In this document: in pieces, positions 27,848 to 56,077 of the stretch | Layout: every line of letters begins with the position of its first letter | Position numbering within the stretch: position 1 is the stretch's first letter | Assembly (NCBI RefSeq): GCF_003334355.1 | Contig: NZ_QOWP01000012.1 | Direction: 5' to 3' (one strand) | Length of the DNA stretch: 64,000 bases | DNA from: Escherichia coli | GTDB lineage: Bacteria; Pseudomonadota; Gammaproteobacteria; Enterobacterales; Enterobacteriaceae | Position numbers and translations under genes: made by a program | Notes under the pieces: generated by a model | Database searches by the model: none | What the model saw: the letters and a program-made list of their open reading frames with translations, nothing else | What the model was told of the DNA's origin: nothing

Positions 27848-29056
27848 ATGACCGTAAATTCTTCACGTAATGCATTGAAACGCCGAACCTGGGCGCTGTT
27901 TATGTTCTTCTTTTTGCCAGGCCTGTTAATGGCGTCCTGGGCAACCCGTACGCCTGCTATCCGCGATATTCTCTCTGTCTCGATCGCTGAAATGGGCGGT
28001 GTTCTCTTTGGTCTGTCGATCGGTTCGATGAGCGGTATTCTCTGCTCGGCGTGGTTAGTGAAACGCTTTGGGACACGTAATGTCATCCTGGTCACGATGT
28101 CCTGCGCATTGATCGGGATGATGATATTAAGTCTGGCACTCTGGCTGACATCGCCCCTGCTCTTTGCCGTTGGTCTCGGCGTCTTTGGGGCAAGTTTTGG
28201 TTCTGCGGAAGTGGCGATAAACGTTGAAGGTGCCGCCGTTGAGCGAGAAATGAATAAAACGGTTTTGCCGATGATGCACGGTTTTTATAGCCTGGGCACG
28301 CTGGCAGGCGCTGGTGTCGGGATGGCACTGACGGCCTTTGGCGTTCCGGCAACGGTGCACATTTTATTGGCGGCGCTGGTAGGTATCGCGCCTATTTATA
28401 TCGCCATTCAGGCAATCCCTGACGGTACGGGCAAAAATGCTGCCGATGGCACCCAGCATGGCGAAAAAGGCGTACCTTTTTATCGCGATATCCAGTTGCT
28501 GCTGATTGGTGTTGTGGTGCTGGCGATGGCCTTTGCCGAAGGTTCTGCCAACGACTGGTTACCCTTATTAATGGTTGACGGTCACGGTTTTAGCCCCACT
28601 TCCGGCTCGCTGATTTATGCCGGTTTTACCCTGGGGATGACCGTTGGACGCTTCACTGGCGGTTGGTTCATCGACCGTTACAGTCGCGTTGCCGTGGTTC
28701 GGGCCAGTGCGCTAATGGGGGCGTTGGGTATTGGGCTGATTATTTTTGTCGATAGCGCCTGGGTCGCTGGGGTGTCTGTTGTACTCTGGGGAATGGGTGC
28801 CTCGCTGGGCTTCCCGCTGACCATTTCTGCCGCCAGCGATACCGGCCCCGATGCACCAACCCGCGTCAGTGTGGTAGCAACGACCGGTTATCTGGCTTTC
28901 CTCGTCGGGCCGCCGCTGCTGGGCTATCTCGGCGAACATTATGGATTACGTAGTGCAATGCTGGTTGTACTGGCGCTGGTTATTCTCGCGGCTATTGTCG
29001 CGAAAGCCGTCGCCAAACCCGATACCAAAACGCAGACGGCGATGGAGAATAGTTGA
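27848..29056 (+). CDS. ybjJ: MFS transporter YbjJ
   Basis: 402 aa; 12 predicted transmembrane segments. Confidence 0.88.
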
Positions 29057-29871
29057 TGAGCATTAAATTAATTGCGGTAGACATGGATGGTACTTTCTTA
29101 AGCGATCAAAAAACCTATAACCGTGAGCGGTTTATGGCTCAGTATCAGCAAATGAAAGCACAAGGCATTCGCTTTGTGGTCGCCAGCGGGAATCAATATT
29201 ATCAGTTGATCTCTTTCTTCCCTGAAATTGCTAATGAAATTGCCTTTGTGGCTGAAAACGGCGGCTGGGTAGTGAGTGAAGGCAAAGATGTTTTTAATGG
29301 CGAGCTGTCGAAGGATGCCTTTACTACTGTCGTGGAACATTTGCTGACGCGCCCGGAAGTGGAAATTATTGCCTGCGGAAAAAATAGCGCCTATACGCTC
29401 AAAAAATATGACGATGCCATGAAAACGGTGGCGGAAATGTATTATCACCGTCTGGAATACGTCGATAACTTTGACAACTTAGAAGATATTTTCTTTAAGT
29501 TTGGCCTGAATCTTTCCGATGAACTGATTCCACAAGTACAAAAAGCATTACATGAGGCCATCGGCGATATTATGGTGCCAGTCCACACCGGCAACGGCAG
29601 CATCGATCTGATTATCCCCGGCGTACATAAAGCCAATGGCCTTCGCCAACTGCAGAAATTATGGGGAATAGACGACAGCGAAGTGGTGGTCTTTGGCGAT
29701 GGCGGTAACGATATTGAGATGCTGCGTCAGGCAGGCTTTAGTTTTGCAATGGAAAATGCCGGCAGCGCGGTCGTCGCAGCGGCAAAATACCGGGCAGGCT
29801 CCAATAACCGTGAAGGCGTACTGGATGTGATCGATAAAGTGCTTAAACACGAAGCGCCATTTGACCAATAA
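29056..29871 (+). CDS. ybjI: HAD-superfamily Cof-like phosphatase YbjI
   Basis: 271 aa; [14 protein letters not shown] with DxDGT HAD motif I; clear paralogue of ybiV at 55262; start overlaps the ybjJ stop. Confidence 0.9.
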   Translation: MSIKLIAVDMDGTFLSDQKTYNRERFMAQYQQMKAQGIRFVVASGNQYYQLISFFPEIANEIAFVAENGGWVVSEGKDVFNGELSKDAFTTVVEHLLTRPEVEIIACGKNSAYTLKKYDDAMKTVAEMYYHRLEYVDNFDNLEDIFFKFGLNLSDELIPQVQKALHEAIGDIMVPVHTGNGSIDLIIPGVHKANGLRQLQKLWGIDDSEVVVFGDGGNDIEMLRQAGFSFAMENAGSAVVAAAKYRAGSNNREGVLDVIDKVLKHEAPFDQ

Positions 29872-29956
29872 AAACGGCAGCACGCCCGGCAACACAATAC
29901 CTGAATGAAGGCTGCATAATTCGCGGAAATTAACCCGCTGCATTATTTCAGGCGAA

Positions 29957-30241
29957 ATGATTATGAAAAATTGTCTACTGTTGGGCGCGCTTTTAATGGG
30001 CTTTACTGGTGTGGCGATGGCGCAAAGTGTCACCGTCGATGTGCCGAGTGGATACAAAGTGGTTGTAGTTCCTGATTCAGTCAGCGTTCCACAAGCGGTC
30101 AGCGTCGCGACTGTGCCGCAAACCGTCTATGTGGCTCCTGCGCCAGCTCCGGCTTACCGCCCGCATCCTTATGCTCGCCATCTTGCCAGCGTAGGTGAAG
30201 GGATGGTTATCGAACACCAGATTGACGACCATCACCATTAA
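29957..30241 (+). CDS. ybjH: Small secreted protein YbjH
   Basis: 94 aa; signal peptide MKNCLLLGALLMGFTGVAMA. Confidence 0.85.
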   Translation: MIMKNCLLLGALLMGFTGVAMAQSVTVDVPSGYKVVVVPDSVSVPQAVSVATVPQTVYVAPAPAPAYRPHPYARHLASVGEGMVIEHQIDDHHH

Positions 30242-30281
30242 TTCGAGAATGCCTGATCGCACAAAGCAGTCAGGCATTTTT

Positions 30282-31514
30282 TTACCCTTCGTGAGAATTT
30301 CCCATCTGTTTATCTTTTAAAAAGATAACCATCAGCGACAGCCACAAAATTCCGTTGACAAGGTTGAAGAGATTAAACTGTCCGTTGCCCCCGTTCAGCC
30401 AGGCATGTTTGCTGATTTCAATACCAACGGTAAAGATCAGCATTTGCAGCATTCCCATCGCCGCAGAAACCGTACCTTTACTCATATCGCTGGCAAACAG
30501 GGTTAATCGCACCAGTCCCGCATTCGCCAGACCAATACCGAAAGCATAAATACTTAACCCGGCAGTCATCCATAAATACGCGTGCGATGAGATAACCGTT
30601 GCCGCAGCAGCGACCAACAGACCAATCATAATCGGCCAGCCGCCCATAATTATCAGCGAACGTACGGTGCGGCGCGAGGTCAGACGCGCTAACAGCAAGT
30701 TACCCGCAATTAACGCCCCGAAAATAGGCACTTGCAGCAAGCCATATTCATAGCTGCTCAACTGCTCGCCGGTAATGATGATAATCGGCGACTGGGCGAT
30801 CCACGCCAGCAATGGCAGGCTAACGAATCCCAGCGCCAGCGCCCCCGCCACAAAGCGGCCGTTCTTCAGCACCAGCTTATAGTCACGACCGAGTTCTTTC
30901 AGTGACAGTTTCTCGCCTATACGCGTGGCGGTTTCAGGCATGGCTCGTTGCAGACCGAAAAAGGAGATCGCTGCCAATGCGGCAAACAAAACAAACATCC
31001 CCTCCCAGGGCAGCACATGGATCCACGCCGCGCCCACCAGCGGACCAAGTAGCGGAGCAATCAGCGCCACGTTCGCCATCAGCGCGGTGATCTTGATACA
31101 AACCGCCTCTTCGAAGGATTCCTGAATTGCGGCGTATCCCACAGCGCCAATGAAACAGAGGCTTATGCCCTGCAAGAAGCGCAACAGGGTGAATTGTTCA
31201 ATGTTTTGCGCCAGCAATATTGCCAGACAGGTGACGATAAACCACACCACTCCCGCCAGCATCACCGGACGGCGACCAATACGATCCGACAGCGGCCCCA
31301 GCAGCCATTGTAAAAACATCCCGCCCGCCAGATACGCGGTCATCGAAGTAGGAACCCAATCAATGCCCGCCTGATATTGTTCCACCACGGCCAACATACC
31401 GGGTTGAATCATATCGTTGCCGATATAGGTTGAAAATTCGTAAAGCACCAGACAGAGAGGGAAAAGTAACGCCTGACGTCCAAGCCTGGCACCGGAAGCT
31501 AATTTATTTTGCAT
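30282..31514 (-). CDS. mdfA: MFS multidrug efflux pump MdfA (Cmr)
   Basis: 410 aa; 12 transmembrane segments; [20 protein letters not shown]. Confidence 0.93.
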
Positions 31515-31798
31515 GCAATTTCTTCGCCAATAATAATCGCGCAGAGTTTAATAAAAGCGCAGCTAACGAGAAAGCGAATTTTGTAGCTGAAACCACGGTT
31601 AAGCACATTCTTACATTATTGCGAGTATAGCTACGCTTTCTTTAAGTTTTATTTAACCTATGCCCGTTACAATCACCCACCGTAAACAGGCCGCTTGAGG
31701 GAAATAAGACGATGCCGCTTTACCCAGTTTAACCTGCACTTTATTCTCAACGACTTGCCTGTATTGGCTCCCTTTTAATCACTTTGCGTCGGGAAGTT

Positions 31799-32395
31799 AT
31801 GCTGGAAAATTTGAATCTCTCTCTATTCTCTCTTATTAACGCGACGCCAGACTCGGCTCCGTGGATGATCTCGTTGGCGATTTTTATTGCTAAAGATTTG
31901 ATTACCGTGGTGCCGTTGCTGGCCGTGGTACTTTGGTTGTGGGGGCTTACAGCACAACGGCAACTGGTGATAAAAATCGCTATCGCGCTGGCGGTCAGCC
32001 TGTTTGTGTCCTGGACGATGGGACATCTTTTTCCGCACGACCGACCCTTTGTCGAAAATATCGGCTATAACTTCCTGCATCATGCGGCGGATGACTCATT
32101 CCCAAGCGATCACGGTACGGTGATTTTCACCTTTGCACTGGCATTTTTATGCTGGCATCGCCTGTGGTCCGGCTCACTTTTAATGGTGCTGGCCGTCGTC
32201 ATTGCCTGGTCGCGCGTTTATCTTGGCGTCCACTGGCCGCTGGATATGCTCGGTGGATTGCTGGCAGGTATGATTGGCTGCCTTAGTGCCCAGATTATCT
32301 GGCAAGCGATGGGGCATAAACTCTATCAACGTCTGCAATCGTGGTATCGCGTCTGTTTTGCATTACCGATCCGCAAAGGCTGGGTGCGTGACTGA
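31799..32395 (+). CDS. ybjG: Undecaprenyl-diphosphate phosphatase (PAP2 family)
   Basis: 198 aa from the ATG at 31799; PAP2 motifs (PSDH, SRVYLGVHWPLD). Confidence 0.9.
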   Translation: MLENLNLSLFSLINATPDSAPWMISLAIFIAKDLITVVPLLAVVLWLWGLTAQRQLVIKIAIALAVSLFVSWTMGHLFPHDRPFVENIGYNFLHHAADDSFPSDHGTVIFTFALAFLCWHRLWSGSLLMVLAVVIAWSRVYLGVHWPLDMLGGLLAGMIGCLSAQIIWQAMGHKLYQRLQSWYRVCFALPIRKGWVRD

Positions 32396-32452
32396 TCTCT
32401 GCTAAAAAGTGTAGTATTGAGCGGCTCGCTTCAATAACTATTCAGAGGGATT

Positions 32453-33211
32453 ATGGAAACACGTCGCGAAGAGCGTATCGGGCAGCTGCTGCAAGAATTA
32501 AAACGCAGCGATAAGTTACATCTTAAAGACGCCGCCGCCCTGCTTGGGGTTTCGGAGATGACGATTCGTCGCGATCTGAACAACCACAGTGCGCCCGTCG
32601 TTTTGCTCGGCGGCTATATTGTTCTGGAACCGCGCAGTGCCAGCCATTACCTGTTAAGCGATCAAAAATCCCGCCTGGTGGAAGAAAAACGCCGGGCGGC
32701 AAAACTGGCTGCGACGCTGGTAGAACCCGATCAGACCCTCTTTTTTGACTGTGGCACCACCACGCCGTGGATTATTGAAGCGATTGATAATGAAATCCCT
32801 TTTACCGCCGTTTGTTATTCGCTAAATACCTTTCTGGCGCTGAAAGAGAAACCCCATTGCCGCGCGTTTCTTTGCGGTGGTGAATTTCACGCCAGCAACG
32901 CCATTTTCAAACCCATCGATTTTCAGCAAACGCTGAATAATTTTTGCCCGGATATCGCTTTCTATTCTGCGGCGGGCGTGCATGTCAGTAAAGGCGCTAC
33001 CTGTTTTAATCTTGAAGAGTTGCCGGTAAAACACTGGGCCATGTCGATGGCGCAAAAGCATGTGCTGGTTGTCGACCACAGTAAATTTGGCAAGGTGCGT
33101 CCGGCGCGCATGGGTGACCTGAAACGCTTTGATATTGTGGTGAGCGATTGTTGCCCGGAAGATGAGTATGTGAAGTACGCGCAGACGCAGCGCATTAAGT
33201 TGATGTATTAA
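32453..33211 (+). CDS. deoR: DeoR transcriptional repressor of the deo operon
   Basis: 252 aa; N-terminal helix-turn-helix and DeoR C-terminal sugar-binding domain. Confidence 0.93.
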   Translation: METRREERIGQLLQELKRSDKLHLKDAAALLGVSEMTIRRDLNNHSAPVVLLGGYIVLEPRSASHYLLSDQKSRLVEEKRRAAKLAATLVEPDQTLFFDCGTTTPWIIEAIDNEIPFTAVCYSLNTFLALKEKPHCRAFLCGGEFHASNAIFKPIDFQQTLNNFCPDIAFYSAAGVHVSKGATCFNLEELPVKHWAMSMAQKHVLVVDHSKFGKVRPARMGDLKRFDIVVSDCCPEDEYVKYAQTQRIKLMY

Positions 33212-33217
33212 TGACGT

Positions 33218-33250
33218 ATAACCGGATGACGTTTCGCGCCATCCGGTTAT
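33218..33250. other. 11-bp-stem inverted repeat between convergent deoR and dacC
   Basis: ATAACCGGATG...CATCCGGTTAT; no clear U-run; possible bidirectional terminator. Confidence 0.4.
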
Positions 33251-33257
33251 CAGAAGA

Positions 33258-34460
33258 TTAAGAGAACCAGCTGCCGAACCACTGATGGAATTTCATCATC
33301 ACGAAATCCCACACCCGACCAAAGAATCCGCCCTCTTCCACATTTTCCATCACGATCAGCGGACGCTGCTCAATGGATTTACCGTTAAGCTGGAAATCAA
33401 TGGTCCCGACAACCTGACCTTTTTTCAGCGGTGCGGTAAGCTGCGGTTCCGTTAACGTATAACTCGCTTTCAGGTTTTTCAGCTGCCCACGCGGTATGGT
33501 CACTGAGCCCGCTTCACCTGCCCCGAGATTCACTTCGCTCTTATCACCAAACCAGACGCGCTGAGTCACAAAGGTGGCATCAGGTTTAATTGGCGTCACG
33601 GTTTCAAAGAAGCGGAAACCCCAGGTCAATAATTTCTCAGACTCATTAAAACGGATACGGTCAGTTTTCGCCCCCAGCACTACGGAGATTAAACGCATAT
33701 CACCCTGGGTAGCCGAAGCAACCAGATTATATCCCGCACCTGCCGTGGTTCCTGTCTTCATGCCATCAACATTCAGATTGCTGCTCCACAGCAGACGGTT
33801 ACGGTTAGGCTGACGAATTTTGTTGAAGGTGAACTCTTTCTCTTTATGAATGGCGTACTCTTCCGGCACATCGTGGATCAATGCTTTACCCAGCAATGCC
33901 ATATCGCGCGCGGTACTGAACTGCCCCGGCGCATCCAGACCGTGCACCGTCTGGAAGGTAGTGTTGGTCAGACCCAGTTTTTTGGCATAACCATTCATCA
34001 AACCAATAAATGACTCCTGGCTCCCGGCAACGTAATCGGCCAGCGCAATACAGGCGTCATTACCGGACTGGATAATCACACCTTTGTTCAAGTCTGCCAC
34101 CGAAACCTGATCGCCCGGTTTGAGGAACATTACCGATGAACCACGCAGTGCCGGATTTCCCGTCGCCCAGGCATCTTTACCGACCGTCACCATATCGGTG
34201 AGTTTAATCTTATCGGCCTTAAGCGCCTGCCCAACCACATAGCTGGTCATGATTTTAGTCAGGCTCGCGGGATCCAGTTTCTCATCCGCGTTGCCTTCTG
34301 CCAGCACTTTACCGCTGGCGTAATCCATTAAAATCCATGCACGCGCATCCACGCTCGGCGCTTCAACGGTTTGTTCCGCCGCGAATGCCGTTGGGGCAAA
34401 AAGGAATAAAAATGCAGAACCCGCTGCAAGACCACGAAGGAGAGAGGAGTATTGCGTCAT
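33258..34460 (-). CDS. dacC: D-alanyl-D-alanine carboxypeptidase PBP6
   Basis: 400 aa from the ATG (complement at 34458-34460); signal peptide; SxxK motif (SLTK). Confidence 0.93.
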
Positions 34461-34706
34461 AAATGCCACCCGAGTATCCATTCAAAAAAAATACGTTATA
34501 TCGCCGTATGATAAGTTCGGTGATTAATAACGCACACACAAACTTAAAGAAACCGTAAGTTGGTAAAGTTTTTAAAGTTTATGCAATATCCTGCCGCTTC
34601 GCTGCTTCTGGTGTCATTTTTTTGCCAGCTGTTGCTTAAAAGTTAACTTTACTTCACCATCGGAGTCCTGTTCAGCCTGTGGCTGCCTGTCGGAAAAGGG
34701 GTGAGT

Positions 34707-35333
34707 ATGATTACGCTGTGGGGTCGGAATAATTCAACTAACGTAAAAAAAGTATTGCTGACGCTCGAAGAACTGGAACTACCTTATGAGCAAATTCTCG
34801 CGGGCCGTGAGTTTGGGATAAATCACGATGCTGATTTTCTGGCGATGAACCCTAACGGGCTGGTGCCGTTGTTGCGTGACGACGAAAGTGATCTCATTCT
34901 TTGGGAATCAAACGCCATTGTCCGCTATCTGGCGGCACAGTACGGGCAAAAACGCCTGTGGATCGACTCACCGGCACGTCGTGCGGAAGCGGAAAAATGG
35001 ATGGACTGGGCAAACCAGACGCTCAGTAATGCTCATCGCGGGATCCTGATGGGATTAGTCAGAACACCACCGGAAGAGCGCGATCAGGCCGCCATTGATG
35101 CCAGTTGCAAAGAGTGCGACGCCCTGTTTGCCCTGCTCGATGCGGAACTGGCAAAAGTAAAATGGTTCTCTGGCGACGAGTTTGGTGTGGGCGATATCGC
35201 TATCGCACCGTTCATCTACAATTTGTTTAACGTTGGCCTGACCTGGACACCGCGTCCAAATCTGCAACGCTGGTATCAGCAACTCACTGAACGCCCCGCA
35301 GTGCGCAAAGTGGTGATGATTCCCGTTAGCTAA
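34707..35333 (+). CDS. gstB: Glutathione S-transferase GstB (YliJ)
   Basis: 208 aa from the ATG at 34707; GST N- and C-domain pattern. Confidence 0.9.
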
Positions 35334-36445: not shown

Positions 36446-36508
36446 AACGCCTCCGGATTGACTCTGGCTTAAAGCGTAGTCAGTGGAGGAGATAACAAAT
36501 TCATTTTT

Positions 36509-36550
36509 ACAAAAACTTAAACATGAAGGGGGAGACGCTTTCTCCCCCTT
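36509..36550 (-). terminator. Intrinsic terminator for bssR
   Basis: AAGGGGGAGA-cgctt-TCTCCCCCTT hairpin immediately after the bssR stop, followed on the minus strand by a T-rich tract. Confidence 0.5.
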
Positions 36551-36555
36551 AGTTT

Positions 36556-38477: not shown

Positions 38478-38484
38478 TTAATTC

Positions 38485-38512
38485 AGGCCGGGCAAAATCA
38501 TTTGTCCGGCCT
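38485..38512. other. Inverted repeat AGGCCGG...CCGGCCT between convergent rimO and dgcI
   Basis: Read directly; no U-run; possible bidirectional terminator. Confidence 0.35.
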
Positions 38513-38523
38513 GCGAATAATGA

Positions 38524-39852
38524 TTACTGCCAGCTAATCTGTGCCCTGCCGTTTTTCTTACTCTTATACAGCCGCTCATCCGCCAGCATTTTCAAGCGTT
38601 CGACGGTAGGACATTCATTTGAATGTGCTACACCGATACTGGTACTTAAATTAATGCTTCCCACCTGGAAATGAACGATTTCTTTTAGAATCGATAGCAA
38701 CTCTTCCAGCGTTCCACCCGTATAAATCACCGCAAATTCGTCACCGCCGAAGCGGTAGACTTTACCTTTATCTACCGGGATCTGTGATTTAAGGATTTTC
38801 ACCACTTTCATCAACACTTCATCGCCCAGCAAATGACCGAAGGTGTCGTTAATGTTTTTGAATTTATCGACGTCAAACAGGCACAAATAACCGCCTTTTT
38901 CCGGCAGCGCTTTTAAATCTTCGTCAAAGGATTTTCTGCCCATTGCTTTGGTCAGGTCGTCCAGGAACGCCGAGTTATACATACTGTAGAGTTTTTTGAC
39001 ATCGGCAGCCGAAAAGAAAAGCCCGCCATCCAGTACGCGTTCAAAATGGTTATTAATGATGGCTTCTTTCTCCACAATACCACGATTAATCACTCTGCGT
39101 ACCAGATAGAGGCAACTGGCACCCGATATCACTGCCACCAATGCGGCAAAGAAAATAATCAATGTACAAACCCGCAAATAAACATCTTTTTTATACGCAA
39201 ATACATACAATCCGGTCGGCAAATAGGCGAAGTGCTCCATCGCTTCCGAAACGGTGAAGATGGCGTTTTTAGCATTATATTCATCACCGGTCACCGGTTT
39301 ACCGTTCTTAAATAGAGAGAACATCAGGTTCTCGCTGTCCATCGCCAGCGATTTTGACAGTAAAGAAAAACGCTCCAGACCAAGCAAAAATATCAGACTA
39401 CGATTGTGAGTTACCGGATAGAGGTAATAGACGAAGGTTTTACCGTCAAAAGAGATAAACCCTGTATTTTTGACATGTCGATACTTCACAACCTGCATAA
39501 TATCTGCACAATAATTTTTCTCGAACTCCTTTACCTGAATACATTCGTCACTGGAAATCAGATAAGGACCGACATCGTACAAATAAGAGGGGGAAACCGA
39601 GTCGGCGTAAGCTGTGCGCAAACCAACCAACAGCTGTTCCTCCGTGGGATTTAGCGTGTTGATAAGATCAATTGCCACGCTACGCCGATATTCAGCAATA
39701 TTTGCCACCGCAAAAGCAGTATCAATAACGGACTGTTTCAGGCTATACACCCGTTCCTTTACCATTTGAGTGTAGATCCCGCAGGCAACTGCTGAAATCA
39801 TGATAAAAATCAGCAGACTGACTGTAAGTACGAACTTATTGATTCTGGACAT
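38524..39852 (-). CDS. dgcI: Membrane-anchored diguanylate cyclase (GGDEF)
   Basis: 442 aa; N-terminal transmembrane segment, periplasmic region, second transmembrane segment, then GGDEF domain (RFGGDEF). Confidence 0.9.
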
Positions 39853-39859
39853 ACGTAAA

Positions 39860-44220: not shown

Positions 44221-44237
44221 TCCACTCCCTGCGTTGC

Positions 44238-45776: not shown

Positions 45777-45795
45777 TTTATTCTCCGCCTGAATG

Positions 45796-47667: not shown

Positions 47668-48619
47668 CGGTGTCCCCTTTTTCACGGTAGATACCGGTGA
47701 TTGGCGTATCGCCTGCGTAGCCCCAGGCGCGATACATTCCTTCGGTGTTAAACGGTAGCGCGACATTCCCTTCATGGTCGATAGCGATTAAGCCACCGCT
47801 ACCGCCAAGCGCAGGGAGTTTTTCCATTACTACCCGCTCGCAGGCTTCCGCGAGACTTAATCCGCCGTAATCCATTAACGCGGCGATGTCATATGCCGCC
47901 AGCGCGCGGATGAAGACTTCGCCCGTGCCGGTACAAGAAACCGCCACACTGGCGTTATTGGCGTAGCATCCGGCACCCACTAAGGGACTATCGCCAACTC
48001 GTCCGGGTAATTTATTGGTCATTCCGCCTGTGGACGTGGCTGCCGCCAAATTGCCGTCTAAATCCAACGCCACGGCCCCCACGGTGCCCATTTTCTGTTT
48101 TTCATCCAGTGGCGCACCGCTATGGTCGAGGACGGTTGCCCCTTCCTTGCGCGCTGCCAGTAGTTGTTCATAACGCAAAGGCGTGGAGAAAATCTCCGGC
48201 GAGACGCGCTCCATGCCACGAGCAAACGCAAAATTTTCTGCCCCTTCGCCAATCATCATCACATGCGGGCTTTGCTCCATCACCAGCCGGGCGGCAAGAA
48301 CCGGATTACGCAGATGACTAACGCCCGCCACCGCACCGGCTTTCAGGGTGTTACCATCCATCACACAGGCGTCCAGTTCATGGGTTTCATCACGCGTAAA
48401 GACAGCGCCAATTCCGGCGTTAAACAGTGGACACTCTTCCAGCAGACGCACCGCTTCCGTCACCACATCCAGCGCACTTTCGCCCGCTTCCAGCATTTTC
48501 TGCCCGGTTTCAACAATGGCAGACAACGCCTCAATGTAGCGTAATTCCTGTTGCAGACTCATCTGCGCGCGGCTAATTGCACCTGCGCCACCATGAATTG
48601 CAATGACTGCTTTGCCCAT
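47654..48619 (-). CDS. iaaA: Isoaspartyl dipeptidase / L-asparaginase-like Ntn hydrolase
   Basis: 321 aa; autoprocessing GT motif (GTVGAVALD); 3' end overlaps the gsiA start by 14 nt. Confidence 0.92.
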
Positions 48620-48822
48620 AGTATTCGTCCATTAAGGGTGGCTCGCCACTTTTGCTATAAATATCAGAATTTTTATGAATTACTCATTCAATTTTTGAAT
48701 ATAGAAAGATGGATATGGCATGTAAAGGCAGGAGCCAACGCTACGCCCGAGGTGGCATACAGTCTGTGGCGTTTTTCTGACATAATAGGCAAATTCGATT
48801 TTGCCTCCGCAGGAGTGTTTTC

Positions 48823-50058
48823 ATGGAATTTACCACCGGATTGATGTCGCTCGACACCGCGCTTAATGAGATGCTTTCTCGCGTTACCCCATTGACCACC
48901 CAGGAAACGCTGCCACTGGTACAGTGTTTTGGTCGTATTCTGGCGAGCGATGTCGTTTCGCCGCTTGATGTTCCGGGGTTTGACAACTCCGCAATGGACG
49001 GCTACGCGGTGCGTTTAGCCGATATTGCCTCCGGGCAACCGCTGCCCGTTGCCGGTAAATCCTTTGCCGGTCAGCCATACCATGGTGAATGGCCTGCGGG
49101 CACCTGCATTCGTATTATGACCGGTGCGCCGGTGCCGGAAGGCTGCGAAGCGGTGGTGATGCAGGAGCAGACTGAACAAACGGACAATGGCGTGCGTTTT
49201 ACTGCTGAAGTGCGTAGCGGGCAAAATATTCGCCGTCGCGGTGAAGATATCTCTGCAGGTGCGGTTGTTTTCCCGGCGGGAACTCGCCTGACTACCGCTG
49301 AACTGCCAGTGATTGCTTCACTGGGGATTGCCGAAGTTCCGGTGATTCGTAAAGTGCGTGTAGCGCTTTTTTCTACCGGTGATGAACTCCAGTTGCCCGG
49401 TCAGCCACTGGGCGATGGCCAAATCTACGATACCAACCGTCTCGCCGTACACCTGATGTTAGAACAGCTGGGTTGCGAGGTAATCAACTTAGGGATTATC
49501 CGCGACGATCCCCATGCCCTGCGCGCCGCATTTATTGAAGCCGACAGCCAGGCGGATGTAGTGATCAGTTCCGGCGGTGTTTCAGTGGGTGAAGCGGATT
49601 ACACCAAAACGATTCTTGAAGAGCTGGGGGAGATCGCCTTCTGGAAGCTGGCGATTAAACCAGGTAAACCGTTCGCGTTCGGTAAACTCAGCAATAGCTG
49701 GTTCTGCGGCCTGCCGGGCAACCCGGTTTCAGCGACGCTGACCTTCTATCAACTGGTACAGCCTTTGCTGGCAAAACTAAGCGGCAACACCGCCAGCGGC
49801 CTGCCCGCGCGCCAGCGCGTACGCACAGCGTCCCGCCTGAAAAAAACGCCAGGACGTCTTGATTTCCAGCGCGGCGTGCTGCACCGCAACGCCGATGGCG
49901 AACTGGAAGTGACGACCACCGGACATCAGGGCTCACATATATTCAGCTCCTTTAGCCTCGGCAACTGCTTTATCGTACTGGAACGCGATCGCGGCAATGT
50001 GGAAGTGGGCGAATGGGTGGAAGTAGAACCGTTTAACGCGTTGTTCGGAGGCCTGTAA
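48823..50058 (+). CDS. moeA: Molybdopterin molybdenumtransferase
   Basis: 411 aa; [18 protein letters not shown]. Confidence 0.93.
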
Positions 50059-50807
50059 TGGCGGAACTCAGCGATCAGGAGATGCTGCGCTACAACCGGC
50101 AAATCATTCTGCGCGGTTTTGATTTTGACGGTCAGGAGGCGCTAAAAGATTCTCGTGTGCTGGTAGTCGGCCTCGGTGGACTCGGCTGCGCAGCTTCGCA
50201 GTATCTGGCAAGCGCCGGTGTCGGCAACCTGACGCTGCTCGACTTCGACTCGGTTTCGCTCTCGAATCTGCAACGCCAGACGCTGCACAGTGATGCCACG
50301 GTCGGGCAACCGAAGGTGGAATCCGCCCGTGACGCCCTGGCGCGGATCAATCCACATATCGCGATTACGCCAGTCAATGCACTGCTGGATGACGCAGAAC
50401 TTGCAGCATTGATTGCTGAACACGATCTGGTGCTCGACTGTACGGATAACGTTGCGGTACGTAATCAACTGAACGCAGGCTGTTTTGCCGCGAAGGTGCC
50501 GCTGGTTTCCGGCGCGGCAATTCGTATGGAAGGGCAAATCACGGTCTTCACTTATCAGGACGGCGAACCGTGCTATCGCTGCCTTAGCCGTTTGTTTGGC
50601 GAGAACGCATTAACCTGCGTAGAAGCAGGCGTGATGGCACCGTTGATCGGCGTAATTGGTTCGTTGCAGGCAATGGAAGCGATCAAACTGCTGGCAGGTT
50701 ATGGCAAACCGGCCAGCGGGAAAATCGTCATGTACGATGCGATGACCTGTCAGTTTCGCGAAATGAAACTGATGCGCAATCCGGGGTGTGAGGTGTGCGG
50801 GCAGTAA
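50058..50807 (+). CDS. moeB: Molybdopterin-synthase adenylyltransferase (ThiF/MoeB family)
   Basis: 249 aa; GLGGLGC nucleotide motif and CxxC pairs; start overlaps the moeA stop (TAATG). Confidence 0.93.
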   Translation: MAELSDQEMLRYNRQIILRGFDFDGQEALKDSRVLVVGLGGLGCAASQYLASAGVGNLTLLDFDSVSLSNLQRQTLHSDATVGQPKVESARDALARINPHIAITPVNALLDDAELAALIAEHDLVLDCTDNVAVRNQLNAGCFAAKVPLVSGAAIRMEGQITVFTYQDGEPCYRCLSRLFGENALTCVEAGVMAPLIGVIGSLQAMEAIKLLAGYGKPASGKIVMYDAMTCQFREMKLMRNPGCEVCGQ

Positions 50808-50817
50808 TTGCCACCTC

Positions 50818-50900
50818 CAGGCCTGATAAGACGCGACAAGCGTCGCATCAGGCATTTGCTCCAGACGCCAGATGCGGCGTGAACGCCTTATCTGGCCTAC
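50818..50900. repeat. REP/BIME cluster between convergent moeB and fsaA
   Basis: GCCTGATAAGACGCGACAAGCGTCGCATCAGGC and CAGATGCGGCGTGAACGCCTTATCTGGCCTAC. Confidence 0.85.
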
Positions 50901-50985
50901 GGTTCGGGCACAGATTTCCAAGCGCGGCAGGCATCGGTGCACTCCGCCACGTCATCAGCAATTTATGAGGATGCAGAACGTCCGG

Positions 50986-51648
50986 TTAAATCGACGTTCT
51001 GCCAAACGCTCCCTGCCAGTCCTGCTCAAACTTCGCCACAGCGGCTTCCACCGCCGGATAGCTAATCATCTGTTGTGCCACATCCAGTGGCAGAGTAATT
51101 GATTCACATCCTGCCAGTAAGCAGTCCAGCGCCTGACGCGGGGTTTTGAAACTCGCTGCCAGCACTTTCGCCTGCGGCGCATGCATTTTCAATAACTGGT
51201 GTAAGTCGGTCACAGTCTGAATGCCGCTACCGCCCTGAGCATCAATACGATTAACGTAAGGCGCAACATATTCCGCACCTGCCAGCGCCGACAGCAGCCC
51301 TTGTGCTGCGCCATATACCGCGGTTCCCAGCGTTGGAATCCCTTCCGCTTTTAACATCTTAATAGCTGCCAGCCCCTCGGCGGTCACCGGAACTTTCACC
51401 ACGATATCCGCAATAATAGAACGCAATTTACGTGCGTCATTCACCATCCCTTCAGCAGTGGTAGCCATTACCTGGGCAAACAGACGCCCCTGACCGCCCA
51501 TCGCTTCATGAAGTTGCGGAAGCACAACATCCAGCGGTTTTTTACCCGCGGCGATAATGCTTGGGTTAGTGGTCACACCCGCCAGCGGAAAAATACGTGA
51601 CAGCGCCTTCACCGCAACAACGTCTGAAGTATCCAGATACAGTTCCAT
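50986..51648 (-). CDS. fsaA: Fructose-6-phosphate aldolase 1
   Basis: 220 aa from the ATG ([30 protein letters not shown]); transaldolase-like fold. Confidence 0.92.
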
Positions 51649-51778
51649 AACCATCCTCAAAATGTACTTTTTGTCTGAATGTAGACTATCACGGGAAAAC
51701 TCTCTGAACAGTTGACGCACATCAATCTAACTTTCATTCGAAAGTATTTTAATGCTTGAACGAAATAGAGAGGCAACT

Positions 51779-52678
51779 ATGATTTTCAATATTCAGCGCT
51801 ACTCGACCCATGATGGCCCCGGTATCCGCACGGTCGTATTTCTTAAAGGCTGTTCGCTGGGCTGCCGCTGGTGTCAGAACCCGGAAAGCCGCGCCCGCAC
51901 GCAGGATCTGCTGTATGACGCACGACTGTGTCTGGAAGGCTGCGAGCTGTGCGCTAAGGCCGCGCCGGAAGTGATTGAGCGCGCGCTGAATGGTTTGCTT
52001 ATTCATCGGGAAAAGTTAACCCCGGAGCATCTGACGGCGTTAACCGACTGCTGTCCGACACAGGCATTAACCGTGTGTGGTGAAGTGAAAAGCGTTGAGG
52101 AGATCATGACGACCGTTCTGCGCGATAAACCGTTTTACGATCGCAGCGGCGGCGGTTTAACGCTTTCGGGTGGTGAGCCCTTTATGCAGCCGGAAATGGC
52201 GATGGCGCTACTGCAAGCCAGCCACGAGGCAGGCATTCATACTGCGGTAGAAACCTGTCTGCATGTGCCGTGGAAATATATCGCCCCTTCTCTGCCCTAT
52301 ATCGATCTGTTTCTTGCCGATTTAAAACACGTTGCCGACGCGCCGTTTAAACAGTGGACCGACGGTAACGCCGCCAGAGTGCTGGATAACCTGAAAAAAC
52401 TCGCCGCAGCGGGCAAAAAAATCATTATCCGCGTGCCGCTGATTCAGGGCTTTAATGCCGACGAAACCTCTGTAAAAGCCATTACCGATTTTGCCGCCGA
52501 CGAGCTGCACGTTGGCGAAATTCATTTTCTGCCCTACCACACGCTGGGCATCAACAAATATCACTTACTTAATCTGCCCTATGACGCCCCGGAAAAACCG
52601 CTTGATGCGCCAGAACTGCTCGACTTTGCCCAGCAGTATGCCTGCCAGAAAGGGTTAACCGCGACCTTACGAGGATAA
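51779..52678 (+). CDS. ybiY: Glycyl-radical-enzyme activating enzyme (radical SAM)
   Basis: 299 aa from the ATG at 51779; CxxxCxxC radical-SAM motif ([10 protein letters not shown]) and a ferredoxin-like Cys-rich insert. Confidence 0.9.
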
Positions 52679-52683
52679 CAACC

Positions 52684-55116
52684 ATGACCACACTGAAACT
52701 GGACACGCTCAGCGACCGCATTAAAGCGCACAAAAATGCGCTGGTGCATATTGTGAAACCGCCAGTCTGTACCGAGCGCGCGCAGCACTATACCGAGATG
52801 TATCAACAACATCTCGATAAGCCGATCCCGGTACGTCGCGCGCTGGCACTGGCGCATCACCTGGCGAATCGCACCATCTGGATCAAACACGATGAGTTGA
52901 TCATTGGCAACCAGGCAAGCGAAGTTCGCGCCGCGCCGATCTTCCCGGAATATACTGTCTCGTGGATCGAAAAAGAGATTGATGATCTGGCAGATCGTCC
53001 CGGTGCTGGCTTTGCGGTGAGCGAAGAGAACAAACGCGTTCTGCATGAAGTGTGCCCGTGGTGGCGCGGTCAGACCGTACAGGATCGCTGCTACGGCATG
53101 TTTACCGATGAGCAAAAAGGTCTGCTGGCGACCGGAATCATTAAAGCGGAAGGCAATATGACCTCCGGCGATGCGCACCTGGCGGTGAATTTCCCGCTGC
53201 TGCTGGAAAAAGGGCTTGATGGTCTGCGCGAGAAAGTAGCGGAACGTCGCTCGCGCATCAACCTGACGGTGCTGGAAGATTTACACGGTGAGCAATTCCT
53301 GAAAGCGATTGATATCGTGCTGGTGGCAGTCAGTGAACACATTGAACGTTTCGCTGCCCTGGCGCGTGAAATGGCCGCGACCGAAACCCGCGAAAGCCGT
53401 CGCGATGAACTGCTGGCGATGGCAGAAAACTGCGATCTTATCGCCCACCAGCCGCCGCAGACTTTCTGGCAGGCGCTGCAACTGTGTTACTTCATCCAGT
53501 TGATTTTGCAGATCGAATCTAACGGTCACTCAGTATCGTTTGGTCGTATGGACCAGTATCTCTACCCGTACTATCGCCGCGACGTTGAACTCAACCAGAC
53601 GCTGGATCGCGAACACGCCATCGAGATGCTGCATAGCTGCTGGCTGAAACTGCTGGAAGTGAACAAGATCCGCTCCGGCTCACACTCAAAAGCCTCTGCG
53701 GGAAGTCCGCTGTATCAGAACGTCACTATTGGCGGGCAAAATCTGGTTGATGGTCAACCAATGGACGCGGTGAATCCACTCTCTTACGCGATCCTCGAAT
53801 CCTGCGGTCGCCTGCGTTCCACTCAGCCTAACCTCAGCGTGCGTTACCATGCAGGAATGAGCAACGATTTCCTCGACGCCTGCGTACAGGTGATCCGTTG
53901 CGGCTTCGGGATGCCGGCGTTCAACAACGACGAAATCGTGATCCCGGAATTTATTAAACTCGGTATTGAACCGCAGGACGCTTATGACTACGCAGCGATT
54001 GGTTGTATAGAAACCGCCGTCGGTGGCAAATGGGGCTATCGCTGTACCGGCATGAGCTTTATCAACTTCGCCCGCGTGATGCTGGCGGCGCTGGAAGGCG
54101 GGCATGATGCCACCAGCGGCAAAGTGTTCCTGCCACAAGAAAAAGCGTTGTCGGCAGGTAACTTCAACAACTTCGATGAAGTGATGGACGCGTGGGATAC
54201 GCAAATCCGTTACTACACCCGCAAATCAATCGAAATCGAATATGTCGTCGACACCATGCTGGAAGAGAACGTGCACGATATTCTCTGCTCGGCGCTGGTG
54301 GATGACTGTATTGAGCGAGCGAAAAGTATCAAGCAAGGCGGCGCGAAATATGACTGGGTTTCTGGCCTGCAGGTCGGCATTGCCAACCTCGGCAACAGCC
54401 TGGCGGCAGTGAAGAAACTGGTGTTTGAACAAGGTGCGATTGGTCAGCAACAGCTTGCTGCCGCACTGGCAGATGACTTCGACGGCCTGACTCACGAGCA
54501 GCTGCGTCAGCGGCTGATTAACGGTGCGCCGAAGTACGGCAACGACGATGATACTGTCGATACGCTGCTGGCTCGCGCTTATCAGACCTATATCGACGAA
54601 CTGAAACAGTACCATAATCCGCGCTACGGTCGTGGTCCGGTTGGCGGCAACTATTACGCGGGTACGTCATCAATCTCCGCTAACGTACCGTTTGGCGCGC
54701 AGACTATGGCAACACCGGACGGGCGTAAAGCCCACACCCCGCTGGCAGAAGGCGCAAGCCCGGCCTCCGGTACTGACCATCTTGGCCCTACTGCGGTCAT
54801 TGGCTCAGTGGGTAAACTGCCTACGGCAGCGATTCTCGGCGGCGTGTTGCTCAACCAGAAACTGAATCCGGCAACGCTGGAGAACGAATCTGACAAGCAG
54901 AAACTGATGATCCTGCTGCGTACCTTCTTTGAAGTGCATAAAGGCTGGCATATTCAGTACAACATCGTTTCCCGCGAAACGCTGCTGGATGCGAAAAAAC
55001 ATCCCGATCAGTATCGCGATCTGGTAGTGCGTGTCGCGGGCTATTCCGCGTTCTTCACCGCGCTCTCTCCAGACGCTCAGGACGATATCATCGCCCGTAC
55101 TGAACATATGCTGTAA
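52684..55116 (+). CDS. ybiW: Pyruvate-formate-lyase-like glycyl radical enzyme, substrate unassigned
   Basis: 810 aa; C-terminal glycyl-radical signature VVRVAGYSAFF; starts 6 nt after ybiY. Confidence 0.9.
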   Translation: MTTLKLDTLSDRIKAHKNALVHIVKPPVCTERAQHYTEMYQQHLDKPIPVRRALALAHHLANRTIWIKHDELIIGNQASEVRAAPIFPEYTVSWIEKEIDDLADRPGAGFAVSEENKRVLHEVCPWWRGQTVQDRCYGMFTDEQKGLLATGIIKAEGNMTSGDAHLAVNFPLLLEKGLDGLREKVAERRSRINLTVLEDLHGEQFLKAIDIVLVAVSEHIERFAALAREMAATETRESRRDELLAMAENCDLIAHQPPQTFWQALQLCYFIQLILQIESNGHSVSFGRMDQYLYPYYRRDVELNQTLDREHAIEMLHSCWLKLLEVNKIRSGSHSKASAGSPLYQNVTIGGQNLVDGQPMDAVNPLSYAILESCGRLRSTQPNLSVRYHAGMSNDFLDACVQVIRCGFGMPAFNNDEIVIPEFIKLGIEPQDAYDYAAIGCIETAVGGKWGYRCTGMSFINFARVMLAALEGGHDATSGKVFLPQEKALSAGNFNNFDEVMDAWDTQIRYYTRKSIEIEYVVDTMLEENVHDILCSALVDDCIERAKSIKQGGAKYDWVSGLQVGIANLGNSLAAVKKLVFEQGAIGQQQLAAALADDFDGLTHEQLRQRLINGAPKYGNDDDTVDTLLARAYQTYIDELKQYHNPRYGRGPVGGNYYAGTSSISANVPFGAQTMATPDGRKAHTPLAEGASPASGTDHLGPTAVIGSVGKLPTAAILGGVLLNQKLNPATLENESDKQKLMILLRTFFEVHKGWHIQYNIVSRETLLDAKKHPDQYRDLVVRVAGYSAFFTALSPDAQDDIIARTEHML

Positions 55117-55261
55117 TCTCCTCGGCCCGGCGGCGTCGTCGCCGGGCTAAATCATTCACATCATCAATTTCATCCTTACTTTCATTCGAAATATAATTTG
55201 TGCTCTGCGTCACATTGTTATTACACTGTTACGGTTTCATTTTCGAGCCAGGAGCACACCT

Positions 55262-56077
55262 ATGAGCGTAAAAGTTATCGTCACAGACATGGACGGTACT
55301 TTTCTTAACGACGCCAAAACGTACAACCAACCACGTTTTATGGCGCAATATCAGGAACTGAAAAAGCGCGGCATTAAGTTCGTTGTTGCCAGCGGTAATC
55401 AGTATTACCAGCTTATTTCATTCTTTCCTGAGCTAAAGGATGAGATCTCTTTTGTCGCGGAAAACGGCGCACTGGTTTACGAACATGGCAAGCAGTTGTT
55501 CCACGGCGAACTAACCCGACATGAATCGCGGATTGTTATTGGCGAGTTGCTAAAAGATAAGCAACTCAATTTTGTCGCCTGCGGTCTGCAAAGTGCATAT
55601 GTCAGCGAAAATGCCCCCGAAGCATTTGTCGCACTGATGGCAAAACACTACCATCGCCTGAAACCTGTAAAAGATTATCAGGAGATTGACGACGTACTGT
55701 TCAAGTTTTCGCTCAACCTGCCGGATGAACAAATCCCGTTAGTGATCGACAAACTGCACGTAGCGCTCGATGGCATTATGAAACCCGTTACCAGTGGTTT
55801 TGGCTTTATCGACCTGATTATTCCCGGTCTACATAAAGCAAACGGTATTTCGCGGTTACTGAAACGCTGGGATCTGTCACCGCAAAATGTGGTAGCGATT
55901 GGCGACAGCGGTAACGATGCGGAGATGCTGAAAATGGCGCGTTATTCCTTTGCGATGGGCAATGCTGCGGAAAACATTAAACAAATCGCCCGTTACGCTA
56001 CCGATGATAATAATCATGAAGGCGCGCTGAATGTGATTCAGGCGGTGCTGGATAACACATCCCCTTTTAACAGCTGA
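55262..56077 (+). CDS. ybiV: HAD-superfamily Cof-like sugar phosphatase
   Basis: 271 aa; [14 protein letters not shown]; strongly similar to ybjI at 29056. Confidence 0.9.

Follow-up and report, generated by a model that had tools for sequence, protein, structure and literature searches.

Two old Cof-type HAD phosphatase paralogs, ybjI and ybiV, in separate conserved contexts of the Escherichia coli chromosome

Two genes for phosphatases of the Cof-type HAD-IIB subfamily, ybjI and ybiV (supH), lie about 26.2 kb apart on the same strand of the window, the stretch of 64,000 nt of Escherichia coli DNA analyzed here, which is ordinary E. coli chromosome (Table 1). A first-pass annotation of this DNA had called two open reading frames, quoted the N-terminal peptides of their products, and named both genes. 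The frames are present as called, the peptides match them exactly, and the names are those carried by the matching E. coli RefSeq loci (100% DNA identity for ybjI and 99.9% for ybiV). RefSeq gives the product of the DNA-identical ybjI locus as 5-amino-6-(5-phospho-D-ribitylamino)uracil phosphatase and that of ybiV as "sugar-phosphatase YbiV"; YbjI is a known E. coli enzyme, and the ybiV of the window is one strain's allele of the gene already described for E. coli YbiV (SupH), with no difference of substance. The neighbors of the two genes differ, as had been described: ybjI adjoins the MFS transporter gene ybjJ, and ybiV adjoins the glycyl-radical genes ybiY-ybiW. No third copy or fragment was detected in the window, where the next tblastn match had an E value above 1.

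Table 1. Genes and sequence features around ybjI and ybiV, in window coordinates.
Feature	Coordinates	Strand	Basis or remark
rcdA (ybjK), TetR-type regulator, divergent from ybjJ	27228..27764	-	annotation from ATCC 8739 and K-12
RcdA box, palindrome TTGTGTACAAATGTACACAA, in the rcdA-ybjJ spacer	27785..27804		exact match; 0 expected by chance
ybjJ, MFS transporter	27848..29056	+	ORF; annotation
ybjI, Cof-type HAD-IIB, 271 aa	29056..29871	+	ORF; TIGR00099; Pfam Hydrolase_3; RefSeq
fsaA, fructose-6-phosphate aldolase, divergent from ybiY	50986..51648	-	NF009296, 450 bits; annotation
14-mer ACTTTCATTCGAAA, copy 1, putative YciT operator	51730..51743	+	exact match; 49 nt upstream of ybiY
ybiY, glycyl-radical enzyme activase	51779..52678	+	TIGR02494, 370 bits; annotation
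ybiW, glycyl radical enzyme	52684..55116	+	TIGR01774, 1411 bits
GC-rich hairpin without a T-run (weak or no terminator)	55125..55147	+	right after the ybiW stop
14-mer ACTTTCATTCGAAA, copy 2	55178..55191	+	exact match; 84 nt upstream of ybiV
CRP-like palindrome TGTGCTCTGCGTCACA, upstream of ybiV	55199..55214		block conserved across genera
ybiV (supH), sugar phosphatase, Cof-type HAD-IIB, 271 aa	55262..56077	+	ORF; TIGR00099; PDB match
Terminator-like hairpin with a T-run	56085..56105	+	right after the ybiV stop
14-mer ACTTTCATTCGAAA, copy 3, inverted	56200..56213	-	exact match; ~29 nt upstream of ybiU
ybiU, DUF1479 protein, downstream of ybiV	56229..57494	+	annotation

Aligned over their full length, YbjI and YbiV are identical at 140 of 270 positions (52%), with 68% positives and no gaps (BLASTP, E 2e-102). 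Identity is highest in the N-terminal core (70% over residues 1–80) and lower in the C-terminal core (47%) and in the cap (42% over residues 81–190). The first 57 residues had been described as nearly identical in the first-pass annotation; the similarity there is strong, but 44 of 57 residues (77%) is less than that wording implied. The same annotation had named identity confined to the HAD core as the finding that would speak against paralogy, and the ungapped alignment through the cap shows the opposite. YbjI and YbiV are true full-length paralogs, with a likeness that extends well past the HAD core they have in common. Both this paralogy and the in vitro activities of the two enzymes were already known.

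Comparison with solved structures places the two proteins close to one another. All 271 residues of YbiV match its entries in the PDB (1RLM, 1RLO, 1RLT, and 2HF2; E ~5e-180). No structure has been solved for YbjI itself; its best solved relative is YbiV (1RLM; E 2.6e-87), to which residues 1–270 align ungapped, the cap included. The structure of YidA (1RKQ), in comparison, matches the window proteins only at E ~1e-11 to 1e-13 (7e-14 as the next E. coli Cof-type match of YbjI). By E value, YbjI and YbiV are each closer to the other than to any further E. coli Cof-type protein with a solved structure, and the margin exceeds 70 orders of magnitude. Cof, YidA, YigL, YbhA, and YedP of E. coli resemble the pair in belonging to the TIGR00099 subfamily and in carrying four motifs and a C2-type cap, but are far more distant from YbjI and YbiV than these two are from each other.

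Membership of the Cof-type HAD-IIB subfamily is supported by scores above the TIGR00099 cutoff of 137 bits (193.4 bits for YbjI and 221.3 for YbiV) and by matches of both proteins to Pfam PF08282 Hydrolase_3 (E ~1e-54). At the level of equivalogs, both proteins fall below the cutoffs. The model for YcsE-related riboflavin metabolism phosphatases (NF045966, cutoff 220 bits) scores 98.1 bits for YbjI and 109.9 for YbiV, and that for YidA-type sugar-phosphatases (NF007806, cutoff 273 bits) scores 87.4 and 80.4, respectively; across the YidA, YigL, YbhA-type, and Cof models the window proteins reach 43–87 bits against cutoffs of 273–386. YbjI, whose RefSeq product name is that of a riboflavin-pathway enzyme, is therefore well short of the riboflavin equivalog (98 versus 220 bits). 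Motif I (DxDGT) reads D9-M10-D11-G12-T13 in both proteins, and D9, M10, D11, and G12 are conserved at 95% or more across both ortholog clades. S44 (motif II), K192 (motif III), and G214-D215-x-x-N218-D219 (motif IV) are likewise kept in both proteins and both clades, and the 81 positions that the two clades conserve in common include every motif residue. Both enzymes are thereby predicted to keep the Mg2+-dependent aspartyl-phosphatase machinery, with Asp9 as nucleophile, Asp11 as acid/base, and Ser44, Lys192, and Asp215/Asn218/Asp219. A C2-type alpha/beta cap between motifs II and III is supported for YbiV by its full-length match to the crystallized protein 1RLM and is predicted for YbjI from its alignment to the same structure.

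Orthologs of both genes are widespread. We found at least 34 YbiV-type and at least 33 YbjI-type loci, representing ~15 or more genera of Enterobacteriaceae, and among the loci listed both copies often lie on one contig, ~20–28 kb apart. Both are under strong purifying selection, with dN/dS of 0.02–0.10. In neighbor-joining trees (200–300 bootstraps), the two ortholog clades received bootstrap values of 1.0 and 0.995, and proteins from Mangrovibacter, Shimwellia, and Entomohabitans grouped with YbiV (bootstrap 1.0). Judged from this distribution, the ancestor of a large number of enterobacterial genera already carried the two as separate copies, each in its present context. The neighbors of outgroup homologs in Mangrovibacter, Shimwellia, Pantoea, Yersinia, Rouxiella, Listeria, and Bacillus had nothing in common with either E. 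coli context.

Positions specific to one clade were sought among 35 YbiV-type and 34 YbjI-type sequences. Twenty positions, including 70/71, 81, 109, 115, 118, 129, and 182, are fixed differently between the clades, eight of them in the N-terminal core, five in the C-terminal core, and seven in the cap, which is therefore not enriched (7 of 110 cap positions versus 13 of 161 core positions). Accordingly, sequence alone gives no proof of a switch in substrate. The first-pass annotation had hinted at divergence of substrate and had pointed to the cap as the place to look for it; a divergence of role gains support from the separate conserved regulation and the published activities of the two enzymes, but not from the cap.

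The context of ybjI is that of a repressed two-gene operon. The stop codon of ybjJ overlaps the ATG of ybjI by 1 nt (TGATG), and among the 33 YbjI-type loci listed, ybjJ lies upstream of ybjI in all, with an overlap of -1, -4, or -11 nt in 30. The regulator gene rcdA adjoins ybjJ in 30 of these 33 loci, and 30 have an RcdA box ~65 nt before the ybjJ start, the loci without a box being those that also lack rcdA; no RcdA box occurs in the YbiV-type loci listed. In this arrangement, ybjI is translationally coupled to ybjJ, and the pair reads as a ybjJI operon. The upstream box and the 1-nt stop/start overlap place ybjI of the window in the RcdA-repressed ybjJI operon, whose repression by RcdA has been described with a footprinted box and with Northern and reporter data (PMC3535384). 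YbjI has been reported, along with YigB, to dephosphorylate ArPP and FMN, and single deletion of ybjI causes no riboflavin auxotrophy (PMC7017516).

A different set of genes accompanies ybiV. The ybiY-ybiW pair adjoins ybiV in 33 of the 34 YbiV-type loci listed, standing immediately upstream and on the same strand in 32, and ybiU follows ybiV in most of them. In the gap between ybiW and ybiV no terminator-like site was called, and scans for consensus promoters and terminators gave nothing decisive. YbiW has been reported to cleave 1,5-anhydroglucitol-6-phosphate (AG6P), according to PMC12441222, which cites Ma et al. 2024. In the literature, YbiV has been used as a promiscuous sugar-6-phosphate phosphatase. 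In the literature searched, no paper tied YbiV to anhydroglucitol, and none described an assay of the enzyme on AG6P.

The genes around ybiV also share a short sequence. The 14-mer ACTTTCATTCGAAA occurs upstream of ybiY, ybiV, and ybiU, and its spacing is conserved: among the YbiV-type loci listed, it lies 49–52 nt upstream of ybiY wherever ybiY is present, 79–84 nt upstream of ybiV in 32 of 34, and 25–30 nt upstream of ybiU in each of the 29 with a same-strand ybiU. The box follows the genes in a rearranged locus of Salmonella diarizonae, where a copy is kept beside ybiU, and Superficieibacter, which is without the radical enzyme, is also without the box. In E. coli ATCC 8739 the ybiV-proximal box is degraded, with three mismatches. 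No match to the 14-mer was found in 444 kb of YbjI-type loci.

This 14-mer most likely serves the repressor YciT as its operator. Two sources describe binding of YciT to the ybiY promoter (PMC8464067; bioRxiv 10.1101/2025.05.13.653802, the latter as a repressor). According to PMC8464067, deletion of yciT de-represses ybiY, ybiU, ybiW, and ybiV, with a log2 change of 2.2 (~4.6-fold) for ybiV versus more than 100-fold for ybiY and ybiU. The two published YciT ChIP-exo peaks are 4415 nt apart, nearer to the 4470 nt that separate the boxes of ybiY and ybiU than to the 3448 nt between those of ybiY and ybiV. Because the box is common to the upstream regions of ybiY, ybiV, and ybiU, we propose that ybiV belongs to a YciT-repressed regulon. 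A second input may come from CRP, given the CRP-like palindrome TGTGCTCTGCGTCACA upstream of ybiV, a gene listed as a Genomic-SELEX target of CRP (PMC3105977).

We consider it probable that the ancient Cof-type HAD-IIB paralogs ybjI and ybiV are set apart by their wiring more than by their chemistry, the one in a ybjJI module under RcdA and the other encoding a relief phosphatase in the YciT regulon. The present analysis demonstrates the paralogy and its great age, the intact motifs, the purifying selection, and the conservation of synteny and regulatory boxes. What the enzymes do in vitro, their repression by RcdA and YciT, and the chemistry of YbiW are drawn from published work, and we infer the physiological substrate of each enzyme in its own operon. 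On the ybjI side, the gene is translated as the second of the ybjJ-ybjI operon, which RcdA represses and an RcdA box precedes, and an ArPP/FMN phosphatase made together with the MFS exporter YbjJ suggests a module that dephosphorylates and then exports. On the other side, ybiV stands at the end of an fsaA/ybiY-ybiW/ybiV/ybiU cluster, with its own upstream CRP-like site and 14-bp box. The YciT regulon would catabolize 1,5-anhydroglucitol-6-phosphate via YbiW and the aldolase FsaA, and YbiV is most likely a broad sugar-phosphate relief valve, which would stop the build-up of AG6P and 1-deoxyfructose-6-P when the oxygen-sensitive YbiW lags.

Two known systems offer analogies, and only analogies. 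In SgrS-YigL sugar-phosphate stress relief, the logic is the one proposed here for YbiV, with a phosphatase clearing a toxic, non-metabolizable, or backed-up sugar phosphate. In mammalian G6PT/G6PC3 repair, G6PC3 acts on 1,5-anhydroglucitol-6-phosphate, the metabolite that YbiW consumes (PMC12441222), although G6PC3 is a membrane phosphatase unrelated to YbiV. More tentatively, and with considerable doubt, the roles can be made specific. Rather than a generic sugar phosphatase, YbiV might be the dedicated safety valve of a radical "anhydroglycolysis," a bacterial functional analogue of G6PC3 that dephosphorylates AG6P or 1-deoxyfructose-6-phosphate when YbiW is inactive. YciT, acting at three copies of one 14-bp operator, would repress it along with ybiYW, fsaA, and ybiU, and CRP would activate it. 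In parallel, YbjJ-YbjI might be a coupled dephosphorylate-and-export module whose substrate is a phosphate ester, either flavin-related or xenobiotic.

It is unlikely, on the evidence above, that ybjI and ybiV are instead functionally redundant, promiscuous housekeeping phosphatases whose neighbors are a historical accident. Such a view can draw on the substantially overlapping substrate ranges of E. coli Cof-like phosphatases (PMC3040653), on the promiscuity reported for both enzymes in vitro, and on the prototrophy of the ybjI single mutant noted above, and it agrees with the even spread of clade-specific residues between cap and core and with NCBIfam models that place both proteins at subfamily level only. 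However, neighbors of merely historical origin sit poorly with contexts, regulatory boxes, and a ybjJ/ybjI overlap that are conserved over ~15 or more genera, with the strong purifying selection on both genes, and with a 14-mer that tracks its genes through a rearrangement in Salmonella diarizonae and that Superficieibacter has lost together with the radical enzyme.

One of the two copies might be a xenolog that was acquired horizontally, perhaps from a Firmicute-like donor, and later fixed, with no duplication inside the enterobacterial lineage; we regard this as rather improbable. Homologs from the Firmicutes Listeria, Bacillus, and Breznakia are 42–53% identical to each paralog, much the same as the identity between the paralogs themselves (44–53%). 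A clade of all Enterobacterales homologs received a bootstrap of only ~0.2–0.31, and one exclusive to YbiV and YbjI received 0.0. Both ybjI and ybiV also have a GC content of 46–47%, versus 51% for the window. Nonetheless, the neighbor-joining tree puts all Enterobacterales together, with the Firmicutes outside; the GC content is equal in the two paralogs, and neither stands out as foreign when set beside its partner; and mobility genes are absent beside either copy in the window.

A recent segmental or tandem duplication in this region, or homogenization by gene conversion, is suggested by the shared strand and length, the 26-kb spacing, and the 77% identity of the first 57 residues but can be dismissed, given a DNA identity of 57% (71% in the N-terminal part, 39% at third codon positions), a saturated dS that is not computable, a longest exact DNA run of 11 nt, different flanking genes without flanking homology, copies that are separate in many genera, and identical-codon use at conserved residues that does not differ between the N-terminus (0.52) and the rest (0.47). 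Since codon sharing is so similar in both parts, the likeness of the N-termini comes from shared constraint rather than from gene conversion. The intra-window duplication of the first-pass annotation accordingly stands as paralogy, but not as a recent or local event.

As first stated, the observation of two paralogous phosphatases in this window is correct but ordinary and of minor importance: both genes are named and biochemically characterized, YbiV has been crystallized, and the literature already groups the two in one E. coli family of Cof-like phosphatases. They make a clean textbook case of old paralogs kept apart by regulation and operon context and not by an obvious change of the active site. 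More useful as a lead is the wiring of ybiV into the recently deorphanized anhydroglucitol glycyl-radical cluster, as indicated by the identical 14-bp box, the conserved CRP-like site, and a synteny that holds across at least 15 genera. The lead offers a concrete, cheap hypothesis for what the physiological substrate of the "promiscuous" phosphatase YbiV may be.

The two Cof-type HAD-IIB phosphatase genes, ybjI and ybiV, were confirmed at the coordinates given in the first-pass annotation, with the N-terminal peptides exactly as quoted there, and the pairwise alignment it proposed is ungapped over the full length of the products (140/270 identical residues, or 52%, with 68% positives; BLASTP E 2e-102). 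The N-termini, described as nearly identical, are strongly similar but not nearly identical (77% over the first 57 residues), and identity drops to 42% across the cap (residues 81-190), with 47% for the C-terminal core. The four HAD motifs (D9-x-D11-G-T, S44, K192 and G214-D215-x-x-N218-D219) are the same in both proteins and are kept throughout both ortholog groups. Crystal structures 1RLM/1RLO/1RLT/2HF2 are those of the window ybiV product (E about 5e-180); YbjI itself is without a solved structure, its best solved relative being YbiV (E 2.6e-87), and the match of either protein to YidA is far weaker (E about 1e-11 to 1e-13). Because YbjI and YbiV are so much closer to each other than to other structure-solved Cof-type enzymes of E. 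coli, the paralogy proposed in the first-pass annotation extends past the shared HAD core, and full-length identity is high enough to sustain it. Both proteins are assigned to Pfam Hydrolase_3 and exceed the curated cutoff of TIGR00099 (193 bits for YbjI and 221 for YbiV, cutoff 137), and neither reaches the equivalog models for YcsE-related proteins, YidA, YigL, Cof or pyridoxal phosphatase (43-110 bits, cutoffs 220-386). RefSeq names them 5-amino-6-(5-phospho-D-ribitylamino)uracil phosphatase (ybjI) and sugar-phosphatase YbiV. No third copy or fragment was found in the window, and both genes have a GC content of 46-47% against 51.4% for the window.

Positions of ybjI, ybiV and associated features in the window
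Feature	Position	Strand	Remarks
RcdA box, palindrome TTGTGTACAAATGTACACAA	27785-27804		rcdA-ybjJ spacer
ybjJ	27848-29056		MFS transporter; TGA overlaps ybjI ATG by one base
ybjI ORF	29056-29871	+	271 aa
ybjH	29957-30241		small, secreted-looking; downstream of ybjI
REP/BIME element	50836-50938		103 nt; moeB-fsaA spacer
14-mer ACTTTCATTCGAAA	51730-51743	+	49 nt upstream of ybiY
14-mer ACTTTCATTCGAAA	55178-55191	+	in ybiW-ybiV spacer, before ybiV
CRP-like palindrome TGTGCTCTGCGTCACA	55199-55214		beside 14-mer, upstream of ybiV; conserved across genera
ybiV ORF	55262-56077	+	271 aa
14-mer ACTTTCATTCGAAA, inverted	56200-56213	-	about 29 nt upstream of ybiU

In DNA sequence, the two genes are only 57% identical (39% at third codon positions), the longest stretch they have in common is 11 nt, and dS is saturated and not computable. 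Gene conversion as the source of the similar N-termini was ruled out, since codon sharing at identical residues is 52% in the N-terminus and 47% elsewhere, so that N-terminal conservation reflects constraint. Among 80 loci listed from a set of at least 80, obtained by scanning a collection of species-representative genomes once and classed by tblastn, 34 were YbiV-type (identity to the window protein 75-98%), 33 YbjI-type (64-97%) and 13 more distant homologs. Both copies lie 20-28 kb apart on one contig, an E. coli-like spacing, in many genera among these loci (Escherichia, Citrobacter, Salmonella, Enterobacter, Lelliottia, Klebsiella, Kluyvera, Pluralibacter, Pseudocitrobacter, Trabulsiella and Superficieibacter). 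Neighbour-joining bootstrap values for the two clades were 1.0 and 0.995, and proteins of Mangrovibacter, Shimwellia and Entomohabitans grouped with the YbiV lineage (1.0). Together, the locus classes and trees place the YbiV/YbjI split no later than the origin of the family Enterobacteriaceae. An exclusive YbiV plus YbjI clade was never recovered in these trees (0.0), a grouping of all Enterobacterales without the Firmicute homologs, which are 42-53% identical to either paralog, was weak (0.2-0.3), and the split may stem from either internal duplication or an old acquisition. The neighbours of two distant homologs, assigned by eye, hint at a sugar-phosphate ancestry of the lineage: in Bacillus glycinifermentans (locus L073, 5420-6748) a family-4 6-phospho-glucosidase-like gene and an RpiR-like regulator, and in Rouxiella aceris (locus L072, 4372-6551) ascorbate-type PTS components. 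Purifying selection acts on both genes (dN/dS 0.02-0.10), with amino-acid change in YbjI about 1.4-2.2 times that of YbiV for the same genome pairs, most clearly in the cap, where mean conservation within clades is 0.72 for YbjI and 0.87 for YbiV.

As first noted, ybjI stands beside an MFS transporter gene, ybjJ, which is directly upstream and overlapping. This order recurs in all 33 YbjI-type loci listed, with an overlap of 1, 4 or 11 nt in 30 of them; a divergent TetR-type gene, rcdA, is present in 30/33, and mdfA is downstream in most. The palindrome, found about 65 nt upstream of ybjJ in 30/33, is missing from exactly the three loci without rcdA (L047, L065 and L075) and has zero occurrences in the YbiV-type loci listed. 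Shimada et al. footprinted this palindrome as the RcdA box and showed that RcdA represses the ybjJI operon (PMC3535384); ionic-liquid tolerance via the pump YbjJ has been associated with rcdA loss (PMC5691611). YbjI, with YigB, is reported to dephosphorylate the riboflavin precursor ArPP and FMN, single deletions not being auxotrophic (PMC7017516). The translational coupling of exporter and phosphatase suggests to us a dephosphorylate-and-export module. Among the loci listed, ybjH was detected only in Escherichia and Citrobacter and not in other genera with ybjJ-ybjI.

The placement of ybiV beside a glycyl-radical cluster also held: ybiV comes after ybiY, an activase gene, and ybiW, a glycyl radical enzyme gene, with fsaA divergent on the upstream side and ybiU downstream. 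ybiY-ybiW are immediately upstream on the same strand in 32/34 YbiV-type loci listed. The 145-nt ybiW-ybiV spacer holds a GC hairpin lacking a T-run, with no terminator called there, and a terminator-like site lies 3' of ybiV. The three 14-mer copies are identical, with no further match in the window at up to two mismatches. At the same tolerance, boxes occur at -49 to -52 of ybiY, -79 to -84 of ybiV and -25 to -30 of ybiU in almost all loci listed from other genera, a fixed-distance conservation spanning about 15 or more genera, whereas 444 kb of YbjI-type loci gave no hit. In Salmonella enterica subsp. diarizonae (locus L010, 5477-11265), where the order is rearranged to ybiU (-), ybiV (+), ybiW (-), ybiY (-), the 14-mer still adjoins each of ybiU, ybiV and ybiY. 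YbiV-lineage proteins of Superficieibacter electus (L023), Entomohabitans, Mangrovibacter and Shimwellia (L035-L038), 58-78% identical, have no ybiYW, ybiU or 14-mer nearby, and the link to the radical-enzyme cluster is thus not universal in the lineage.

The 14-mer triplet is probably the operator of YciT, and published data are consistent with this; the motif was not found written out in the YciT literature searched. ChIP-exo located YciT in this cluster, and yciT deletion raises expression (log2) of ybiY by 7.7, ybiU by 7.0, ybiW by about 3 and ybiV by 2.2 (PMC8464067); reporter and mass spectrometry work identified YciT as a repressor that binds over the ybiY promoter, which is active anaerobically (bioRxiv 10.1101/2025.05.13.653802). 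The ChIP-exo peak spacing of 4415 nt is closer to that of the ybiY and ybiU boxes (4470 nt) than of the ybiY and ybiV boxes (3448 nt), and YciT binding at the copy nearest ybiV is therefore putative, proposed because that copy is identical in sequence and conserved. The conserved CRP-like palindrome suggests a separate, CRP-dependent promoter for ybiV within the cluster, and ybiV is among the Genomic-SELEX targets of CRP (PMC3105977).

The window belongs to the core chromosome of E. coli and, between lysO and opgE, is collinear with that of K-12 MG1655 (~99% identity) except for the REP/BIME insertion. DNA around ybjI is present in 5423/5426 and that around ybiV in 5426/5426 complete E. coli genomes; at least 80% of 54800-56500 is covered in only 4229/5426. 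The REP/BIME element is an ordinary insertion polymorphism: K-12 MG1655 and ATCC 8739 lack it, and 1143/5426 genomes carry it at full length. ATCC 8739 (locus L001) carries ~1 kb of unrelated DNA, encoding a hypothetical protein and a DUF6960 protein, in place of ybiU (window 56056-57726), with which the third 14-mer copy goes, and its ybiV-proximal box is degraded to ATTTTAATCCGAAA (3 mismatches; ybiW-ybiV spacer, L001 30858-30998). Its fsaA-ybiV segment (window 50939-56055) is only 96.4% identical to the window, compared with 98.5-99.8% in the flanks, which points to a divergent allele or recombination patch. Between rimO and dgcI, this strain also has a RelE/ParE toxin-antitoxin pair (L001 13374-14369), missing from the window (38483-38524) and K-12, and a prophage integrase and CI repressor adjoining rcdA, where the window has ybjL. 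In the E. albertii locus, on a contig that stops around the ybiU position, ybiU was not detected.

The different neighbours had been read as a hint of substrate divergence. Against this, the cap-residue comparison found no enrichment in the cap among 20 clade-specific positions, and in vitro promiscuity and absent single-mutant phenotypes have been reported (PMC3040653, PMC7017516). We favor regulatory partition: the two enzymes share HAD chemistry, and the evidence indicates that they were divided between two regulons long ago, both arrangements being maintained. YbjI, active on flavin-pathway phosphates, is produced along with an exporter under RcdA. YbiV, a broad sugar-phosphate phosphatase used on psicose-6-P and mannose-6-P and screened on tagatose-6-P, would be expressed alongside an anaerobic pathway with unusual sugar-phosphate intermediates; according to a passage of PMC12441222 citing Ma et al. 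2024, YbiW cleaves 1,5-anhydroglucitol-6-phosphate (AG6P) to 1-deoxyfructose-6-phosphate. No YbiV assay on anhydro-sugar phosphates was found in the literature searched. The most economical role for YbiV would be relief of sugar-phosphate build-up, a parallel to mammalian G6PC3, which hydrolyses AG6P, the compound cleaved by YbiW.

The paralogy is correct and ordinary: the genes, family, YbiV structure, in vitro activities and joint listing as Cof-like paralogs (PMC3040653) were already known. Results here demonstrate the ancient age of the duplication and add a regulatory partition (RcdA box versus triple 14-mer box and CRP-like site) that at least 15 genera have kept, together with a testable physiological hypothesis for YbiV.
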